The notes under the pieces are model-generated. The model made no database searches and was not told the DNA's origin. It was given only the letters and a program-made list of their open reading frames with translations. From a virus (lineage: Duplodnaviria > Heunggongvirae > Uroviricota > Caudoviricetes): a stretch of 8,369 nucleotides of DNA. The stretch is taken from the IMG/VR virus record IMGVR_UViG_3300039329_000118. One strand, written 5' to 3'. Position 1 is the stretch's first letter; the number at the start of each line of letters is the position of its first letter. Below are positions 1,087 to 8,107 of the stretch, piece by piece. Position numbers and translations under genes: made by a program.

Positions 1087-1169
1087 ACTTAACCCCTGAC
1101 CACTGCCTGGTAACTCGAAGTATTGCCCTGCATTCTGTGGGGCGGGGTGGGTTGGTATGAAAAGAAGGA

Positions 1170-1206
1170 TACCCATAGGTATTTAAAAAGTAAATACCCA
1201 TGGGTA
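1170..1206. promoter_or_regulatory. OL-like operator pair (TACC-N4-GGTA palindromes) just 3' of the repressor gene
   Basis: TACCCATAGGTA (1170..1181) and the perfect 12-bp palindrome TACCCATGGGTA (1195..1206), 25 bp centre to centre, embedded in A/T-rich DNA. Same half-site architecture as the sites between the repressor and cro-like genes. Placement matches lambdoid OL/PL; the promoter hexamers were not resolved. Confidence 0.5.
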
Positions 1207-1247
1207 AATTTTGCGGTGTCTTAACTGGTGACTAGTTGTTTGGTGAG

Positions 1248-1667
1248 CTATGATGCGTTTTGTGCTTTCTTTTTACGGATTTCTTCGTAGATCATATTGT
1301 AATACTGTTTTTTCTCTTCAAGAGTTTTTAATAATTTATCCGCTTCACTTTCTGGCAGTTCGTCTAAGAGATCTAAAAAAATACGTTGTCGTGGCGTTAG
1401 AACCCTTGTTTCATAACTGGAGGCTGTGTTCGTTGATGATGAAACGATACCATCCATCCATCCCCGGGGTAACCCAAAGGACTCTTCGATAATCTCCACC
1501 ATATCATCAGCGATCCGTTTTTTTCCCTTTTTCCCCTCTGGGTACAACATTCTTGATACATAAGAAGGCTCGCGCCCGATCTTTCTGGCCACGTTAACCG
1601 CTTTACCATCGCATTTCTCATCACGAATTTTGATGAGTTGCTGTCGTCTAAATTCATATTTGTCCAT
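1248..1667 (-). CDS. prophage repressor, CI-like HTH protein without a recognisable S24 autoprotease domain
   Basis: 139-aa ORF divergent from a cro-like gene. N-terminal HTH-like segment (KAVNVARKIGREPSYVSRML). Too short for a LexA-like Ser/Lys peptidase domain and no such motif seen. Flanked by palindromic operators. No SD before the ATG at 1667, so it may be translated from a leaderless or short-leader transcript, as lambda cI is from PRM. Confidence 0.7.
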   Translation of the reverse strand: MDKYEFRRQQLIKIRDEKCDGKAVNVARKIGREPSYVSRMLYPEGKKGKKRIADDMVEIIEESFGLPRGWMDGIVSSSTNTASSYETRVLTPRQRIFLDLLDELPESEADKLLKTLEEKKQYYNMIYEEIRKKKAQNAS

Positions 1668-1687
1668 AGGTAAATAATAGATGCGAT

Positions 1688-1743
1688 TACCGCAAGGTAA
1701 ACAACCTGTGGGTATTGGCTTTTGTTTACCTGCGGGTATTCTT
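1688..1743. promoter_or_regulatory. OR-like tripartite operator with divergent repressor and cro promoters
   Basis: Three TACC-N4-GGTA-type sites: TACCGCAAGGTA (1688..1699), AACCTGTGGGTA (1703..1714, degenerate), TACCTGCGGGTA (1727..1738). Candidate rightward promoter -35 TTGGCT (1715..1720) and -10 TATTCT (1738..1743) overlapping the third site. AAGGAG SD at 1757..1762 precedes the cro-like ATG at 1768. Confidence 0.5.
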
Positions 1744-1767
1744 TGCTGTGTTTACTAAGGAGTAGCT

Positions 1768-2049
1768 ATGGAAGAATTAAGAATATTTCTCAATTCTCTT
1801 TCGTCAGATGAACAGCGTATGTTTGCATGCGAGTGTGGTACCAGCATCGGTTATCTAAGAAAGGCATTGAGTAAAGGTCAAGTGTTAGGGGCATCGTTAT
1901 GTGTCCTTATTGAGCGAGCCAGTAATGGTGAAGTTACACGTCAGCAACTAAGGCCTTTTGATTGGATGAATATTTGGCCCGAGCTGGAAGATACCAAAAC
2001 GTTAACACAACCACTTTCTAGGAGCTTGATTCATGAAAATCAAGCATGA
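1768..2049 (+). CDS. Cro-like HTH regulator, YdaS family
   Basis: 93-aa ORF with strong SD (AAGGAG, 5-nt spacer), divergent from the repressor. The segment ERASNGEVTRQQLRPFDW resembles the YdaS motif of Rac prophage as I recall it (family assignment from memory, not searched). Confidence 0.65.
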   Translation: MEELRIFLNSLSSDEQRMFACECGTSIGYLRKALSKGQVLGASLCVLIERASNGEVTRQQLRPFDWMNIWPELEDTKTLTQPLSRSLIHENQA

Positions 2050-2458
2050 ACACATCCGCATGGCGATGAATGCCTGGGCGCGTCCTGATGGCGAAAAAGT
2101 TCCAGCAGCTGGAATAACCCAGGCTTATTTTGAGTTGGGTATGACGTTCCCGGAACTGTATGACGACAGCCATCCGGAAGCCCTGGCTCGCAATACCCAG
2201 AAAATTTTCCGCTGGGTAGAGAAAGACACCCCTGATGCAGTTGAAAAAATTCAGGCGTTGTTACCAGCGATCGAAAAGGCAATGCCACCTTTGCTGGTGG
2301 CCAGAATGCGCAGCCACAGTTCAGCTTATTTTCGGGAGCTGGTGGAGACGCGGGAGCGACTGGTGAGAGACGCTGATGATTTTGTCGCAGTGGCAATCGC
2401 CGGTTTCAATCAGATGAACCGTGGTGGCCCGGCAGGAAATGCTGTGGCAGTACATTGA
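2033..2458 (+). CDS. YdaT-like protein (CII-analogous regulator, formerly annotated as a toxin)
   Basis: 141-aa ORF overlapping the cro-like gene by 17 nt. The N-terminus MKIKHEHI matches my recollection of Rac YdaT. Position (cro, then this gene, then replication gene) matches the Rac ydaS-ydaT-ydaU order. Confidence 0.55.
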   Translation: MKIKHEHIRMAMNAWARPDGEKVPAAGITQAYFELGMTFPELYDDSHPEALARNTQKIFRWVEKDTPDAVEKIQALLPAIEKAMPPLLVARMRSHSSAYFRELVETRERLVRDADDFVAVAIAGFNQMNRGGPAGNAVAVH

Positions 2459-2529
2459 CTGACAATAGCCATATCGAATCGCTTCCGGCAACTCGTGAGT
2501 AAAAAGATTCGGTATCAGAAGAGGTGAGT

Positions 2530-3600
2530 ATGGCTAACGCCTGGCTCAGATTATGGCATGACATGCCAAATGACCCTAAGTGGCGAACAATTGCCAGGGT
2601 GTCAGGGCAGCCAATTGCAACAGTGATGGCAGTGTATATCCACCTCCTGGTGAGTGCGTCACGAAATGTCACGCGAGGTCACATTGATGTCACGACAGAA
2701 GATTTGGCAAGTGCGCTCGACGTGACAGAAGAGGTAATTGATTCAATTTTGCAGACGATGCAGGGGCGGGTACTTGATGGTGATTTAATCACTGGATGGG
2801 AAAAACGCCAGGTGCTTAAAGAGGACAACGGCAATATTTCGCAAACCGCAAAATCTCCTGCAGAGCGCAAGAGGGCGCAGCGAGAGAGGGAAAGAAAGCG
2901 GGAACAAAATGGCGATTGTCACGGCGCGTCACGAAATGTCACGCACATGTCACGACGAGTCACGACAGATAAAGATACAGATAAAGATACAGATCAAGAA
3001 GATCAAAACACTATGGTCCATGGCGTAAAAAACGCCACGAACCAGGCAGGGGATGTTCAGACCGTCAATCCTGGTCAGCCAGCAGGCACGACACCGGAAG
3101 CCGATTCAGCGTATGCGCTGAAAGCCGATTCGGGCGCTGTGCAGCAGGTGATGACCCCAAGGCCGGAGCAATCACACCAACTGCAGCAGCCTGAAGCCGA
3201 TTCCGCCATTCAGCGGAAAGCCGATCGGGTAGTCCCGGAAAACACCGGGCTGTCTGTGGGACGAGTGGATTATCCGGATGCGTTCGAACAGGTCTGGCGG
3301 GAGTACCCGTTGCGTGCCGGAGCAAACCCGAAGAAATCCGCTTTCAGTGCCTGGAAGGCCAGATTACGCGAGGGGGTGCCACCAGAGGCCATGCTGGATG
3401 GCGTGAGGCGTTACGCAAGATACTTGGCGGCTACCGGGAAAACGGGAACGGAATTTGTTCAGCGAGCGACGACGTTTTTTGGACCGGACCGGAATTTTGA
3501 GAACCCCTGGTTGCTCCCGGTAAGCGGCACGAACAACCAGCGTTGTGTGAATCATATTTCTGAACCGGATAACGAAATTCCGCCGGGCTTCAGGGGGTAA
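2530..3600 (+). CDS. phage replication initiation protein (O-like / replisome organiser) with internal origin repeats
   Basis: ORF-track 2524..3600 (GTG start). I prefer the ATG at 2530 with AGAGG 6 nt upstream. Sits in the replication-module position after cro/YdaT-like genes. Contains two iteron clusters and an AT-rich tandem repeat within the coding sequence, giving repeated peptide motifs (SRNVT...VTT twice, DKDTDKDTD). The C-terminal ~120 aa is a distinct region of unknown fold. Confidence 0.65.
   Translation: MANAWLRLWHDMPNDPKWRTIARVSGQPIATVMAVYIHLLVSASRNVTRGHIDVTTEDLASALDVTEEVIDSILQTMQGRVLDGDLITGWEKRQVLKEDNGNISQTAKSPAERKRAQRERERKREQNGDCHGASRNVTHMSRRVTTDKDTDKDTDQEDQNTMVHGVKNATNQAGDVQTVNPGQPAGTTPEADSAYALKADSGAVQQVMTPRPEQSHQLQQPEADSAIQRKADRVVPENTGLSVGRVDYPDAFEQVWREYPLRAGANPKKSAFSAWKARLREGVPPEAMLDGVRRYARYLAATGKTGTEFVQRATTFFGPDRNFENPWLLPVSGTNNQRCVNHISEPDNEIPPGFRG
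2656..2694. repeat. iteron cluster A: four GTCAC(G/A) repeats at 10-11 bp phasing
   Basis: GTCACG at 2658, 2668, 2689 and GTCACA at 2678 (start positions). The 19-mer GCGTCACGAAATGTCACGC (2656..2674) recurs exactly at 2926..2944. Confidence 0.55.
2918..3010. repeat. iteron cluster B (five GTCACG repeats) plus adjacent AT-rich tandem repeat: candidate origin of replication
   Basis: GTCACG starting at 2918, 2928, 2938, 2949, 2959 (10-11 bp phasing), followed by two perfect tandem copies of GATAAAGATACA (2968..2979, 2980..2991) and a degenerate third. This mirrors the iterons-plus-AT-rich layout of lambda ori inside gene O. Confidence 0.55.
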
Positions 3601-3640
3601 GTGTTAATTTCTGGTCATGAGGTAATTTTCAGGAGGGCTT

Positions 3641-4063
3641 GTGGCAAAAGTTTTTACACAAGAAGAGCGGGAAAAAATTAAAGGACAGGTTGTTGAACTC
3701 GTACGCCAGAGTGGGCGTGAGACGTTACGGCAACTGGAAGTCAAGACAGGTGCGACAAGATATCTGATGAGCGTTCTCGCAAGAGAGCTGGTTGCCAGCG
3801 GCGATGTATACAACTCTGGTTACGGGTTATTCCCGTCTGAACAGGCGCGTAAGGACTGGCAAAATGCCCGTAAAAAGCTCTCAAGGGCAAAGCTGAAGAA
3901 ACCATCTGCGGTTGATCCGGACCTTATCTGGCCATTACCTGACGGAGAAATACGTCGCTACGACAGGCGTCAGAACATAATCTGTCGCGAGTGCCGGAAG
4001 AGTGAAGTTATGCAGCGCATATTGTCGTTTTATCAGGGTGATGTTCGGTATTTATTGAAGTGA
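3641..4063 (+). CDS. hypothetical protein downstream of the replication gene
   Basis: 140-aa ORF with GTG start and AGGAGG SD (3631..3636), 40 nt after the replication gene stop. Contains one CxxC (CRECRK) near the C-terminus. Far too small to be a DnaC/P-like helicase loader. Function unknown. Confidence 0.5.
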   Translation: MAKVFTQEEREKIKGQVVELVRQSGRETLRQLEVKTGATRYLMSVLARELVASGDVYNSGYGLFPSEQARKDWQNARKKLSRAKLKKPSAVDPDLIWPLPDGEIRRYDRRQNIICRECRKSEVMQRILSFYQGDVRYLLK

Positions 4064-4130
4064 CGAGATTAAAGTGCATTAGTTCAGATGCAAATTGACA
4101 TTTTGTGGCACAGGGTAGAGCTAGCGTGGT

Positions 4131-4156
4131 TGTCCGCTTTGTGCCAACAGCGGACA
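4131..4156. terminator. GC-rich hairpin between convergent genes (possible bidirectional terminator or insulator)
   Basis: Stem GTCCGCT (4132..4138) pairs with AGCGGAC (4149..4155) around a 10-nt loop. Lies between the stop of 3641..4063 (+) and the stop of 4210..5019 (-). No flanking T-run on either strand, so not a canonical intrinsic terminator. Confidence 0.3.
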
Positions 4157-4209
4157 TTATAGATGGTATATGTAGAAAGTGAACATGCGTAGATTGTATG
4201 ATTTAGCCG

Positions 4210-5019
4210 TCACTTAATTATTGGATAACTCACACAAGTATGACCGTTGCTTATCGCATACATTTGGTTTCCCTTAAGATTTACAAATGGAAATGTCGTA
4301 TACTCATAATTTATAGAGGTCATATTAAATGTAAGGAATTTATCCTCAAGTTCTAATTTTGTAGAGTGGGCAGGGTATGTTCCTTCATTTTTCATTGTGA
4401 TAATAAAACCGATAGGAAAAAAATGTAAAGCACAAATAAATGCCACATGTCCTTCGTTCATAAATGCTACACTTTGAGCGGATATGTGCATTCTGTGTGG
4501 GTAAAACCAGTAGTAAATATCATGAGTTTCCTCAAAACTTGAATTTTTACCCAAAACATAATCCTTTAAAGGTGTATAGAAGGGGCTATCTACGGGTTCT
4601 TTTTTACAATCTTCAACTGAAGTTGCTGATAGCACGTGCCCAATCATAGCCTTAGTGAAAGATATGCTATCAAAAGGTATTCTAATGAATGGATATACAT
4701 TCATACCATTCATATATCGACTTAACTGTTCTTTAAAGGACTTTGTTACATTTTCAATTGCAACATCGAGCCCACCTAATACCTTATTGTTACAGTGGCT
4801 GCAAATGGTTCTGAAATAAGAGCCATTTTTAGCATTTAATGGTTTAACTGGTTCCTGAATACCAAAAAATTCGCTAACTGTTTTCTGCAAAACAGGGCCT
4901 AAGGTTATGGCGCACTTTGGAGGAACATGATCTTTTGTGAGCAAGCCATATTTCCCACAAATATTGCAATAACCTTCAGTAATGCCATTGTGCTTCCATC
5001 GTTCACTAATTTTCGTCAT
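4210..5019 (-). CDS. HNH (His-Me finger) nuclease-motif protein with an uncharacterised C-terminal domain
   Basis: 269-aa ORF in markedly AT-rich DNA, opposite in orientation to the flanking phage genes. N-terminal motif C-N-I-C-G-(x7)-D-H-V-P-P-K ... N ... C-S-H-C-N-N-K fits the HNH pattern (CxxC, [D/E]H, N, CxxC). SD-like GAGGGA about 6 nt upstream of the ATG on the minus strand. About 180 C-terminal residues unrecognised. Confidence 0.75.
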   Translation of the reverse strand: MTKISERWKHNGITEGYCNICGKYGLLTKDHVPPKCAITLGPVLQKTVSEFFGIQEPVKPLNAKNGSYFRTICSHCNNKVLGGLDVAIENVTKSFKEQLSRYMNGMNVYPFIRIPFDSISFTKAMIGHVLSATSVEDCKKEPVDSPFYTPLKDYVLGKNSSFEETHDIYYWFYPHRMHISAQSVAFMNEGHVAFICALHFFPIGFIITMKNEGTYPAHSTKLELEDKFLTFNMTSINYEYTTFPFVNLKGNQMYAISNGHTCVSYPIIK

Positions 5020-5139
5020 TTTTATTCCCTCAGTAGCATAAGCTATCTATACGTTTTTTAATCCTATCAAAGATACAACTTAACGTCAGGAAAATGATAG
5101 TGTTTATCTAAGTAATACAATTAACTTCAACGCGTGACA

Positions 5140-5163
5140 GTCTGCTTTTCGCTCAAAGCGGAC
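5140..5163. other. GC-rich hairpin upstream of the HNH gene, related to the hairpin at 4132..4155
   Basis: GTCTGCTTTTCGCTCAAAGCGGAC; its reverse complement matches 4132..4155 at 20 of 24 positions, and 18 of 24 in direct orientation because both are near-palindromic. Together they bracket the HNH gene. Confidence 0.35.
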
Positions 5164-5643
5164 TAGAAGGTTAGCTTGCGTCGGACTTGGCGTATTTAAA
5201 GAAGTGCTGGTGGTGACTGGTTGTTGTGTTCCATTTCTACAGAACAAAATCACAGAAACTATACCCAATAGTTGTATCTCATCAATGATGAGACAGCCTC
5301 ATATTTATCAGAACTGGTGTACGTCCAATACAGGAGGTTGTCGTGCTGGTTCTCAAATGTGCGCTGGCTATTGCTGCTGTAATGGCAATTTATTGCCTTG
5401 CTGTTGTTCTTATGGATCGCCTTTCTGATTGATTTTATATTGGCGAGGTGACGTGAGTTAAGTAGAATTGCTGCGGGTGCTTGAGGCTATCTGTCTCAGG
5501 CATGAACACCAAAGGCAGATAGAGAAAAGCCCCAGTTAACATTACGCGTCCTGCAAGACGCTTAACATTAATCTGAGGCTCAATCTATGAACGGCAAATC
5601 TAGGTTAGCCTCTTACGTGCCGAAAGGCAAGGAGAAGCAGGCT

Positions 5644-5799
5644 ATGAAGCAGCAAAAGGCGATGTTAATCGCCCTGATCGTCATCTGTTTAACCGTCATT
5701 GTGACGGCACTGGTAACGAGGAAAGACCTCTGCGAGGTACGAATCCGAACCGGCCAGACGGAGGTCGCTGTCTTCACAGCTTACGAACCTGAGGAGTAA
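5644..5799 (+). CDS. hokD: Hok/Gef family type I toxin (HokD/RelF-like small membrane peptide)
   Basis: Translation MKQQKAMLIALIVICLTVIVTALVTRKDLCEVRIRTGQTEVAVFTAYEPEE (51 aa) has the Hok/Gef layout: hydrophobic transmembrane segment then conserved C-terminal tail. It matches my recollection of E. coli HokD/RelF closely; the symbol is from memory. SD AAGGAG at 5629..5634. The ORF track's 70-aa frame (from ATG 5587) is an in-frame upstream extension. Confidence 0.85.
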   Translation: MKQQKAMLIALIVICLTVIVTALVTRKDLCEVRIRTGQTEVAVFTAYEPEE

Positions 5800-5868
5800 G
5801 AGACCTGGCGGGGGAGAAATCCCTCGCCACCTCTGATGAGTCAGGCATCCTCAATGCACCCGCGCTTA

Positions 5869-5888
5869 ACCCGCTTCGGCGGGTTTTT
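5869..5888 (+). terminator. rho-independent terminator of the hok transcript
   Basis: Stem ACCCGC (5869..5874), UUCG tetraloop (5875..5878), stem GCGGGT (5879..5884), followed by T-run to 5888. About 70 nt after the hok stop. Confidence 0.75.
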
Positions 5889-5903
5889 CTAGCATCTATC
5901 TGG

Positions 5904-5963
5904 TTGACAAAGTCTATGTTAAATGGAAATATGGTTGACACCAAAACAACAAGGATATTACGG
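5904..5963 (+). promoter_or_regulatory. candidate promoter region for the two-gene operon
   Basis: Two TTGACA hexamers (5904..5909 and 5935..5940) in the 77-bp gap between the hok terminator and the ATG at 5966. Possible -10 elements are AAATAT (5927..5932) for the first, or TATTAC (5956..5961) for the second, which would give a near-leaderless mRNA. Weak; start site not resolvable by eye. Confidence 0.3.
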
Positions 5964-5965
5964 TC

Positions 5966-6580
5966 ATGCAGAATTTATCTCAACAGTTGTTAGAAGCATA
6001 TGACAAGGAGTGCCGCAAAGAGCTTTCGATCGCGTTAGCACAGGCTTATCTTCATTCGCATATGAAGGCAAAAGAGTTTGGTTCTTTTTGGGCTCAAGCA
6101 CAGTCATATTTGCGCTGGTTTTATGCCGATGCATTGCTTGAGAATGCGGCTAAGCGTGTGGGGCTGGATTTTGAAGTCGGTAGCAATGCTGCTAAAAATT
6201 GTAAACACATTGCGATTCACTCGAACAACTGGAAAATGACGGCACATCATTTATCGGGTAATGCGCCACTTCCTAAGCAGGCATTGTATAGAGCTGTTTA
6301 CGCTAATCAAAATTATGAATTGAATTTTGGGGATGAAAATGCCGACTCCCTGGATGGGAGAGCGTCTGGTGGACATGTTTATATGTTACATGATGGCAGT
6401 AATCAGCACTTGTCCAAACTGAATTTAACTGTTCCTTCTTCGGATAATTACGGGATTCTTTATACTGAGTCTTTACCAATTATGACGATGGTAGAAGTTG
6501 AAGCAGAAAATGTGGATTCTGAGATTGAAGATAAAATCAAGATTCTTACCGAACAAATAATTAAATCACAGCAATCATGA
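5966..6580 (+). CDS. hypothetical protein, first gene of the two-gene operon (candidate effector/toxin partner of the HTH-peptidase)
   Basis: 204-aa ORF, AT-rich. Stop overlaps the next gene's start (ATGA at 6577..6580), implying translational coupling. No motif I can recognise; acidic C-terminal tail. Confidence 0.7.
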   Translation: MQNLSQQLLEAYDKECRKELSIALAQAYLHSHMKAKEFGSFWAQAQSYLRWFYADALLENAAKRVGLDFEVGSNAAKNCKHIAIHSNNWKMTAHHLSGNAPLPKQALYRAVYANQNYELNFGDENADSLDGRASGGHVYMLHDGSNQHLSKLNLTVPSSDNYGILYTESLPIMTMVEVEAENVDSEIEDKIKILTEQIIKSQQS

Positions 6581-7722
6581 GCATGAATATCGCACAAACA
6601 CCATTTACTGATAAATCGTTTAATCCTCGTCGCCTTGAGGAGGCAAGAGAGGCAAAAGGGTTGACGATGGCTGAACTTGCCAGAGTGCTCAATATTTCAA
6701 GACAAGCTATTTCGTCATTTGAGAAGGGGTTGAAGTCTCCCTCTGCTGATACACTTTCTGCAATAGCCAAGGTGTTAGGATTTCCAGAACGATTTTTCTT
6801 AGCCTCCAGTGCTTCTCCATCTCTGGAGGGGGCGATTCATTTTAGAAGTCGTTCAACTGCGACCAAAAAGGCTCGAGTTACAGGGAAAACACGTGGGCGT
6901 TGGGCGGCATTAATATTGGATGAATGTCTAAAATATGCTCAATTACCAGATGTGGTTCTGCCTGAATTCGATATTATTGATTTTGAGGTTCTGTCTCTAT
7001 CTGATATTGAGGATATGTCCACCCAATTAAGGCGTTTTTGGGGGTTAGGTGATGGTCCAATACTCAATTTAACTAGACTTGTTGAAAATAAAGGAATCGT
7101 GGTTTCTCATTTACCTTCTGGTGAGAAAGTTGATGCCTTTTCGTTCTGGCATAATGGGCGGCCTTTAATTATGTTAGATAGCTCGAAGACGGCTGTTCGC
7201 ATGCGATTTAGTCTTGCTCATGAACTTGGCCATTTAATTATGCATAGGGCAGTGGAGGATGACTACCTGAATGATAAAGAATTATTCGACCTAGTGGAGT
7301 TGCAGGCCGATTATTTTGCCTCCAGCTTTTTAATGCCAGCCACGACTTTCGGGCGTGAATTTTATAGTCCAAATTTATCAGCGTTAGAACGATTAAAACT
7401 ACGTTGGATTACATCTATCGGTAGTATTGCCATGAGGAGTCATAGCCTTAAGTTAATTAGCGATAATCAGAAAAGCTATATATTTAAGCAATTAGCGCCA
7501 TTCCATCGTAGGGAGCCGTTAGATGATGCAATCCCAAAAGAAGAGCCTGAGTTACTTAATAAGTTACTTTTACTTCTTGATAAGCATTCAATCATAAAGG
7601 TAACTGAGTTAACTGATATCTTTGCTCTTCCTTTAAATGAGTTATCTGCAATTACACGATTTAAAGAATCAGATATGATTCATTCTGACAATGTTATTTC
7701 ATTTACCATAAAACAAAAATAA
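6577..7722 (+). CDS. XRE-family HTH fused to an ImmA/IrrE-type (COG2856 / M78-like) zinc metallopeptidase domain
   Basis: 381-aa ORF. N-terminal Cro/C1-type HTH (LTMAELARVLNISRQAISSFEKG). Central HEXXH zinc-binding motif (SLAHELGHLIMH) with the downstream acidic/aromatic segment (ELQADYFASSFLMP) typical of ImmA/IrrE peptidases. Coupled to the upstream gene and followed by a terminator. Confidence 0.85.
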   Translation: MSMNIAQTPFTDKSFNPRRLEEAREAKGLTMAELARVLNISRQAISSFEKGLKSPSADTLSAIAKVLGFPERFFLASSASPSLEGAIHFRSRSTATKKARVTGKTRGRWAALILDECLKYAQLPDVVLPEFDIIDFEVLSLSDIEDMSTQLRRFWGLGDGPILNLTRLVENKGIVVSHLPSGEKVDAFSFWHNGRPLIMLDSSKTAVRMRFSLAHELGHLIMHRAVEDDYLNDKELFDLVELQADYFASSFLMPATTFGREFYSPNLSALERLKLRWITSIGSIAMRSHSLKLISDNQKSYIFKQLAPFHRREPLDDAIPKEEPELLNKLLLLLDKHSIIKVTELTDIFALPLNELSAITRFKESDMIHSDNVISFTIKQK

Positions 7723-7828: not shown

Positions 7829-8107
7829 ATGGCGCACGATACCAAATTATACAATTCTGATGATTCTGCCGTCTTTGCCAGCAGGCGCGGACGGTGTTTT
7901 CACGCATTCAAATCTGACTGGTACCAGCATCCCCCATGCACTGAAGAACAGGCCGAATGGCTCATTCAGTGTTACCGCAGGCGCGGATGCGAGGTTAAAA
8001 AAGCCCTTAGCCTCGACTACCGTCACTGGATAATCTCCGTCAGGCTCCCTTACTCCGAACGGCCAGCGCGTCCGTCCCGCACATTCCAGCAACGGATCTG
8101 GAGGTAA
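7829..8107 (+). CDS. hypothetical ORF in higher-GC DNA (weak call)
   Basis: 92-aa ORF-track frame ending with TAA at 8105..8107. Plus-strand frame preferred over the overlapping minus-strand 147-aa frame, whose P/G/R/S/T-rich composition looks like an antisense shadow. No SD or motif verified. Confidence 0.25.
   Translation: MAHDTKLYNSDDSAVFASRRGRCFHAFKSDWYQHPPCTEEQAEWLIQCYRRRGCEVKKALSLDYRHWIISVRLPYSERPARPSRTFQQRIWR

Follow-up and report, generated by a model that had tools for sequence, protein, structure and literature searches.

The stretch of DNA studied here is the 8,369-nucleotide (nt) Caudoviricetes record IMGVR_UViG_3300039329_000118 (the window, by which we mean this stretch at its full length), and it is the early region of a lambdoid Escherichia coli prophage. 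It carries a gene for a small repressor of 139 amino acids (aa), a divergent cro-like gene, and five palindromes of the pattern TACCNNNNGGTA (TACCN4GGTA) around the repressor gene. We conclude that these palindromes are probably the left and right operators (OL and OR) of a lambdoid repressor/Cro immunity switch, in which the repressor does not cleave itself and the prophage is either induced through an antirepressor or not induced by the SOS response at all.

A preliminary description, made from the letters of the window, had listed five such palindromes and read them as a defined operator code for a non-cleavable repressor. All five were found at the positions given there, four as exact matches and one, the OR2-like site, with a single mismatch. 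The window contained exactly four exact sites compared to 0.06 expected, and none of 200 shuffled sequences reached four, so the number of exact sites was far above chance. A search that allowed one mismatch added three scattered matches in the window (at 2207, 4668 and 7112), which was close to the chance level of 1.71. Three of the five palindromes lie in the 100-bp gap between the divergent repressor and cro genes, with offsets of -71, -47 and -32 from the repressor ATG, and the other two lie 3′ of the repressor gene. The OR1-like and OR2-like sites are spaced 24 bp apart and the OR2-like and OR3-like sites 15 bp, while the two OL sites, at 1195 and 1170, have a spacing of 25 bp.

The arrangement was then compared across related loci. 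An alignment of the N-terminal domain of the repressor was scanned against one genome per species, which gave 41 loci from Enterobacterales, Aeromonas, Neisseria, Burkholderiales, Ferrovum, Nitrosomonas and Xanthomonadales; coliphage mEp043 brought the comparison set to 42, and counts out of 43 include the window. The 42 loci with the same DNA-binding domain held 118 exact TACCN4GGTA sites in 250,881 nt, compared to about 3.8 expected. In 30 of the 43 loci there were three OR sites at matching offsets from the repressor ATG (-73, -48 and -33), and a pair of sites 24–26 bp apart was found downstream of the repressor gene in 31 of the 43, at distances from 42 to 2,169 nt past the stop codon. The middle OR site was degenerate in the same way in nearly all relatives, the window included, with GGTT, GGGA or GGTC in place of GGTA. 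A search for further sites in the rest of the prophage had been proposed as a check; across four contexts of related prophages (17–41 kb), exact sites were confined to the OL and OR positions apart from one in the late region of locus L128.

The presence of the sites also followed the recognition helix of the repressor. At least one site was kept in all 40 loci with the helix SYV(S/T/L/I/G)R, and also in locus L084 (SYISR), and no sites were found in two loci with the helix A(S/T)ISH or in one with SYVNRIF. In addition, a divergent Cro with the motif CGTSIGYLRKA...VTR..L.P.DW..IWPEL was conserved together with the repressor DNA-binding domain and the operators. The covariation of helix and operator, the co-conserved Cro, the promoter elements described below and the conserved geometry together make it very likely that the palindromes are operators. 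The excess of sites, their fixed offsets and their covariation with the recognition helix across loci thus speak for the operator code that had been proposed, with a predicted operator consensus of tTACCyryrGGTAa and a repressor half-site of about T-TACC-Y-R.

Two groups of loci depart from this arrangement. The Advenella loci L118 and L122 are distant members with the helix A-S/T-I-S-H, and they lack both TACCN4GGTA sites and a cro gene. In L118 a longer palindrome, TACCGC-N8-GCGGTA, lies about 50 nt upstream of the repressor-like gene, and L122 has an imperfect counterpart, TACCGTCCATTGTTACGGTG; these palindromes hint at a half-site that was kept with a different spacing. Four Klebsiella loci (L083, L086, L087 and L089), with a 233-aa repressor of the S24 type, have sites at -73 and -33 and lack both an OR2 site at -48 and a YdaS-like Cro. 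This subgroup appears to have another control-region architecture on the same DNA-binding domain.

An alternative for the OL pair is that it serves mainly as an intrinsic terminator of the repressor transcript. Read on the minus strand, 1206..1170 folds into a 16-bp stem capped by a 5-nt loop, and UCCUUCUUUU comes next; the minimum free energy is -23.4 kcal/mol (z = -4.6; none of 200 shuffled sequences was as stable), and the complementarity extends 4 nt past each palindrome (repeat I3). This strong hairpin with its U-rich tail and the extended pairing favor a terminator. However, the same pair with the same spacing recurs in the 31 loci counted above at very different distances from the stop codon, often after other genes and flanked by a TTGACA -35 box, not by a T-tract, and the OL sequences are the same motif as the OR sites. 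In the relatives, the proximal OL site is followed by TTGACA (TTTACT in the window), and the final TA of the distal site is the start of a -10-like hexamer. We consider it unlikely that termination is the main function. The operator role is taken as primary because the conserved pair elsewhere lies far from the repressor stop codon and beside a -35 box, and a dual role in this prophage is possible.

With the five palindromes read as operators, the layout resembles that of phage lambda, as had been suggested: three sites lie between the divergent repressor and cro genes over predicted PR and PRM promoters, and two lie at a leftward promoter, PL, 3′ of the repressor (Table 1). The PRM geometry is conserved in 30 loci. 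In the relatives, TTTACC lies inside OR3 and a TAnAAT-like -10 box is found 5–8 nt ahead of the repressor ATG; in the window the PRM -10 box ends 7 nt ahead of the ATG, so the repressor mRNA is probably leaderless, as at lambda PRM. Counted from the presumed start of PRM, the OR2-like site is centered at about -41.5. In 32–33 of 34 loci OR2 adjoins TCAA, which reads TTGA on the cro strand. The assignments of PR and PL are predictions from the sequence and from the geometry in the relatives.

Table 1. Predicted elements of the immunity switch and selected genes in the window (positions are those of the 8,369-nt stretch)
Feature	Position	Strand	Match, boxes or size	Remarks
OL1-like operator TACCCATAGGTA	1170..1181		exact match	overlaps the -10 box and start region of predicted PL
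OL2-like operator TACCCATGGGTA	1195..1206		exact match, perfect palindrome	on the - strand, the PL -35 box follows immediately
OR3-like operator TACCGCAAGGTA	1688..1699		exact match	overlaps the PRM -35 box; offset -32 from the repressor ATG
OR2-like operator AACCTGTGGGTA (TACCCACAGGTT on the repressor strand)	1703..1714		one mismatch	abuts the PR -35 box
OR1-like operator TACCTGCGGGTA	1727..1738		exact match	between the PR -35 and -10 boxes, overlapping -10
Predicted PL	1166..1194	-	-35 TTTACT (1194..1189), 17-nt spacer, -10 TATCCT (1171..1166)	from sequence and the geometry in relatives
Predicted PRM	1674..1701	-	-35 TTTACC (1701..1696, inside OR3), 16-nt spacer, -10 TATTAT (1679..1674)	from promoter scan
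Predicted PR	1715..1742	+	-35 TTGGCT (1715-1720), 16-nt spacer, -10 TATTCT (1737-1742)	from sequence
Repressor gene	1248..1667	-	139 aa	residues 1-74 helix-turn-helix DNA-binding domain, 76-87 disordered linker, 89-139 helical hairpin
cro-like gene	1768..2049	+	93 aa	YdaS-type helix-turn-helix; matches YdaS and PHROG 35
RmrT gene	5966-6580		204 aa	matches PADLOC RmrT; overlaps rmrA by 4 nt
RmrA gene	6577-7722		381 aa	HTH_3 and M78/IrrE; matches 14 PADLOC RmrA models, best E 5.5e-102

In the proposed mechanism, dimers of the 139-aa repressor would bind the five palindromes through the N-terminal helix-turn-helix, presumably with cooperativity, and residues 34–40 (PSYVSRM) are the likely recognition helix. 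Binding to the OR1-like (1727) and OR2-like (1703) sites, which flank or overlap the -35 and -10 boxes of PR, would silence cro, the ydaT-like gene and replication, all of which PR would drive. A repressor bound near -41.5 of the PRM start, at the OR2-like site, could also activate PRM, and negative autoregulation would come from binding to the OR3-like site (1688), which covers the PRM -35 box. The OL sites at 1195 and 1170 bracket PL likewise, and PL would drive a leftward operon with a DUF1391/ydfA-like gene and the genes that follow it. The YdaS-like Cro presumably uses the same operators.

The absence of a LexA-like autopeptidase from the repressor, also part of the preliminary description, agreed with our searches. 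Pfam gave no match for the repressor, neither for its N-terminal domain nor for S24, even at E<=10, and the sequence contains neither an Ala-Gly cleavage site nor a GDSM motif. The same S24 model, PF00717 (Peptidase_S24), matched the relatives P0046 and P0059 and the mEp043 CI at E 1e-17 to 6e-23. In the AlphaFold 2 (AF2) model of the repressor (mean predicted local distance difference test score, pLDDT, 84.5), helices 3–18, 23–30, 34–40 and 54–63 form a lambda/XRE-like helix-turn-helix domain, residues 76–87 are a disordered linker, and residues 92–138 are a C-terminal helical hairpin with a pLDDT of 90–94. A sequence search of the PDB with the repressor gave nothing significant; in a Foldseek search the top PDB match was Rep, from the complex of Rep and Ant of Salmonella phage SPC32H, and the remaining matches were XRE-type helix-turn-helix proteins.

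The two halves of the repressor had different relatives. For residues 1–74, the N-terminal parts of many S24-type 'LexA family' proteins (221–242 aa) were 64–82% identical, as were the roughly 137-aa full-length proteins of Salmonella, Serratia and Yersinia; this domain showed no similarity to the N-termini of DicA or GtgR. In contrast, residues 89–134 aligned without gaps to DicA 84–129 (33% identity, E 2e-7), and residues 88–130 matched Gifsy-2 GtgR 87–133 (E 0.002); a MAFFT alignment of the C-terminal domains of all three proteins was collinear and gap-free. The NCBIfam DicA model matched residues 86–136 at E 1.9e-5 and 24.5 bits, well under its cutoff of 101 bits. By homology, the repressor is therefore a domain chimera, in which a DNA-binding domain from a CI family mostly linked to S24 is joined to a DicA/Gifsy C-terminal module. 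When the N-terminal domain was searched with HMMER against 1.84 billion cluster representatives, 620 clusters were found at E<=1e-3. Among 138 representatives examined, 36 had Peptidase_S24 and six had the C-terminal domain of this repressor, and the rest had other tails or none that could be recognized.

The many S24-bearing homologues raise the question of whether the 139-aa protein is what is left of an S24-type CI after truncation, with its gene decaying in a defective prophage and the sites as relics. Most of the close relatives of its N-terminal domain are indeed PF00717 proteins of 221–242 aa, and several of the host prophages are defective. However, residues 89–139 are not an S24 remnant but a confidently modeled hairpin with homologues in the C-termini of DicA and GtgR, and the stop codon is only 41 bp (1207–1247) from the OL2-like site, which leaves no room for such remnants. 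Full-length relatives of the same architecture, with 53–85% identity, were found in Salmonella, Serratia, Yersinia and Arsenophonus (those in Salmonella, Serratia and Yersinia have about 137 aa), the protein is 99–100% conserved in hundreds of genomes, and the cluster to which it belongs counts 543 members. We therefore give almost no weight to decay. The preliminary description had held that S24-bearing homologues would reveal a truncated copy; such homologues are numerous, but the tail of this copy has been replaced, not lost.

Of 5,426 complete E. coli genomes, 822 carried the 1-kb immunity region at about 99% identity; O157:H7 strains are among them, and the repressor is mostly annotated in these genomes as 'hypothetical protein'. 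In locus L001 (12150–12494) RefSeq gives the repressor a shorter start, as a 114-aa 'phage repressor protein', and tblastn recovered the full 139 aa at 100% identity.

Because the repressor has no S24 domain and has a DicA/Gifsy-type tail, it is predicted to be unable to cleave itself. The Gifsy repressors are likewise not cleaved and are inactivated by small antirepressors, whose genes belong to a dinI operon under LexA control that lies outside the immunity region; DicA and RacR have been placed in the same repressor family (Lemire et al., PMC3121763). DicA is antagonized by Rem (Ragunathan et al., PMC10448788). The length of 139 aa fits the range of 135–160 aa of the small non-cleavable Gifsy, DicA and RacR repressors. 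The homology of the C-terminal module suggests that the present repressor is either controlled by an antirepressor or effectively blind to the SOS response. Induction, if any, would most likely need a small antirepressor from elsewhere in the prophage or from another prophage, and otherwise the prophage would not be SOS-inducible. An antirepressor-type route, which had been put forward from the lack of an autopeptidase, is a reasonable expectation given a C-terminal domain homologous to those of DicA and GtgR.

Several points weigh against this model of the switch and its induction. Binding of the repressor to the sites is a prediction, made from the covariation of recognition helix and operator. 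The OL hairpin with its U-rich tail may be a terminator in addition to an operator pair. A simple promoter scan called PRM only, and PR and PL are weak matches to the consensus. Searches with the operator strings and the mEp043 operators found no relevant publication in the searchable literature, the coverage of which is incomplete. The antirepressor step is the weakest part of the model and draws on a 50-residue domain at 28–33% identity, and the Gifsy paper does not state which region of the Gifsy repressor is contacted by the antirepressor. When GftA, DinI, IrsA and Rem were compared by tblastn with the window and with three loci that carry the same repressor (L001, L125 and L128), the sole match was a DinI-like gene outside the prophage in L128. 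No LexA box was found in the window and no credible one in L001, L125 or L128; in L125 there were only chance-level matches with three mismatches.

In L001, a LexA-box-like sequence, TACTGTAAAAATATCCAGTT, was found at 22038–22057 with two mismatches to the consensus. The box lies where a DNA methyltransferase gene downstream of Q is annotated to start; this prophage carries the same repressor, and no small antirepressor-like gene is linked to the box. A 92-aa open reading frame (ORF) at 7829–8107 in the window was considered as an analogue of Rem, from the gene order hokD-rem-ydfU in Qin, and was rejected: it has no similarity to Rem and is present whatever the immunity type. Three prophages of O157 Sakai (Sp6, Sp9 and Sp10) have repressors without a peptidase domain and were not induced by mitomycin C (Asadulghani et al., PMC2669165). 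A direct tie to a tested Sakai prophage was also dropped, as Sp6 and Sp14 carry other repressors, and the non-inducibility of Sp6, Sp9 and Sp10 serves as an analogy only.

For the role of anti-repressor or protease, the preliminary description had named as a possible candidate the protein encoded at 6577–7722, which has a helix-turn-helix and an ImmA/IrrE domain. As a dedicated factor, it would inactivate the 139-aa repressor in the manner of ImmA, which acts on ImmR in ICEBs1. Induction of the ImmA type is an established mechanism in other elements; the protein does have M78/IrrE and HTH_3 domains, and the disordered linker of the repressor (residues 76–87) is a conceivable target for a protease. 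However, the matches of the protein to the PADLOC models identify it as RmrA. With the overlapping RmrT it makes up a RosmerTA toxin-antitoxin defence pair, which the prophage carries as cargo. RosmerTA has been described previously (Millman et al., bioRxiv 10.1101/2022.05.11.491447). The block was found in at most 41 of the 5,426 E. coli genomes, compared to 822 with the immunity region. It lies between hok/sok and the 92-aa ORF. Relatives with the same repressor have the 92-aa ORF next after hokD, so the pair is an insertion; the block was absent at that position in L001, L125 and L128. Furthermore, the gene is 4.9 kb from the repressor gene and not adjacent to it, unlike in immR-immA pairs. 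We consider it very unlikely that this protein induces the prophage, and the earlier assignment is replaced by a defence module that is easily mistaken for an inducer. At least one of the 41 genomes, the avian pathogenic E. coli (APEC) strain E19035, has the same repressor and RosmerTA together with other replication genes, so the co-occurrence is real but rare. That none of the 5,426 genomes had a contiguous 1100–7722 reflects mosaic replication modules, and this count was not used, only 41 versus 822.

The remaining genes are those of a lambdoid early region. To the left of the repressor gene are ydfA/DUF1391-type genes, and to the right are, in order, the YdaS-like cro, a YdaT/cII-like gene, a replication initiator, a DUF977/Ren-like gene, hok/sok, the two-gene insertion, the 92-aa ORF and the start of a DUF968 gene. 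The Cro of the window has 93 aa compared to 76 aa in most family members, which end in ...IWPEL(xAA), and its extra tail overlaps the start of the ydaT/cII-like gene (2033–2458). Between the start of the DUF1391 gene and OL, a masked stretch or gap of 31 N (1056–1086) takes the place of 16 nt found in three relatives (ACGCCTCGGGCTGGCT). The hok/sok type I toxin-antitoxin locus spans 5475–5799 (Rfam sok, 110 bits), with a Mok/Hok-like ORF at 5587–5799. The 92-aa ORF (PHROG 1212, function unknown) directly precedes the DUF968 gene and is often unannotated; the same ORF stands ahead of DUF968/NinG in Sp6, in Sp14 (whose CI is of the S24 type), in Qin together with rem, and in Gifsy-2, there before ninG and at 36% identity. 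Within the rightward operon, on the minus strand, is a 269-aa ORF with CxxC pairs (4210–5019; PHROG 21495, function unknown), which had no Pfam, NCBIfam or PADLOC match and may be another moron or defence candidate.

A wider reading is that one ancient cassette, spread through beta- and gamma-proteobacterial prophages, comprises the DNA-binding domain, a YdaS-like Cro and a fixed arrangement of five operators, and that only its induction-sensing C-terminal domain has been swapped repeatedly (two S24 types, the DicA/Gifsy type and others). We put this forward tentatively, and it could well be wrong. If it holds, the 139-aa form, found in about 15% of complete E. coli genomes, would give SOS-proof repression, immunity in trans would be possible against S24-type phages with the same operator code, such as mEp043, and the prophage itself would be inducible only by antirepressor crosstalk from other prophages. 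The present system is in any case a clean natural example in which operator specificity, set by DNA-binding domain, Cro and sites, is kept constant and the induction mechanism is exchanged between S24 self-cleavage and a DicA/Gifsy-type tail; this separation bears on predicting which prophages answer SOS-inducing antibiotics and which are cross-immune. A testable operator consensus and a predicted promoter map are now at hand for an immunity group of that same frequency which NCBI mostly calls 'hypothetical protein'.

A lambda-like switch and a Gifsy-like repressor tail are both of known kinds, and what is added is the uncatalogued and widespread combination of DNA-binding domain, Cro and operators; the DNA-binding domain is absent from Pfam. 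With lambda CI/Cro the system shares divergent repressor and cro genes, three intergenic operators with OR1 and OR2 about 24 bp apart over PR, OR3 over the PRM -35 box, OR2 near -42 of PRM, a repressor mRNA that is probably leaderless, and a second operator cluster at PL downstream of the repressor gene. It differs from lambda in having TACC-N4-GGTA palindromes of 12–14 bp instead of 17-bp sites, two OL sites instead of three, OR2 and OR3 15 bp apart, a Cro of the YdaS type and no S24 C-terminal domain, and its DNA-binding domain has no detectable sequence relation to that of lambda CI. The ImmR/ImmA systems of ICEBs1 and phi105 share with the window an M78/IrrE metallopeptidase fused to a helix-turn-helix, whereas here that protein is RmrA, is not adjacent to the repressor and is missing from most carriers of the repressor. 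The antirepressor-controlled Rep of SPC32H (PDB 5d50/5d4z) also combines a helix-turn-helix with a helical C-terminal part and was matched by Foldseek with E 1.6e-3 and probability 1.00; this is a weak match, with a template modeling (TM) score of about 0.45 and 15–17% identity, and Rep has about 170 aa compared to 139 aa and no Ant homologue was identified here. GfoR and GtgR of the Gifsy phages and DicA of Qin resemble the repressor in length (135–139 aa), in lacking an S24 domain and an Ala-Gly site, and at the C-terminus, where about 50 residues form a homologous, collinear module (L-S/T-P...L.LF..LPE.E). Their surroundings are likewise lambdoid, with DUF1391/ydfA, dicB and hok genes. In contrast, the N-terminal domain here is of another family, and neither a GfoA/GftA/Rem homologue nor a LexA-controlled dinI operon was found here. 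Coliphage mEp043 is one of the S24-type counterparts that share the DNA-binding domain. Its CI has a DNA-binding domain that is 76% identical and a recognition helix that is identical (EPSYVSRMLY), its OR1, OR2 and OR3 sites have offsets of -72, -47 and -32, its OL pair is 25 bp apart and its Cro is homologous, whereas the CI itself is 228 aa long, contains Peptidase_S24 and is presumably cleavable with RecA.

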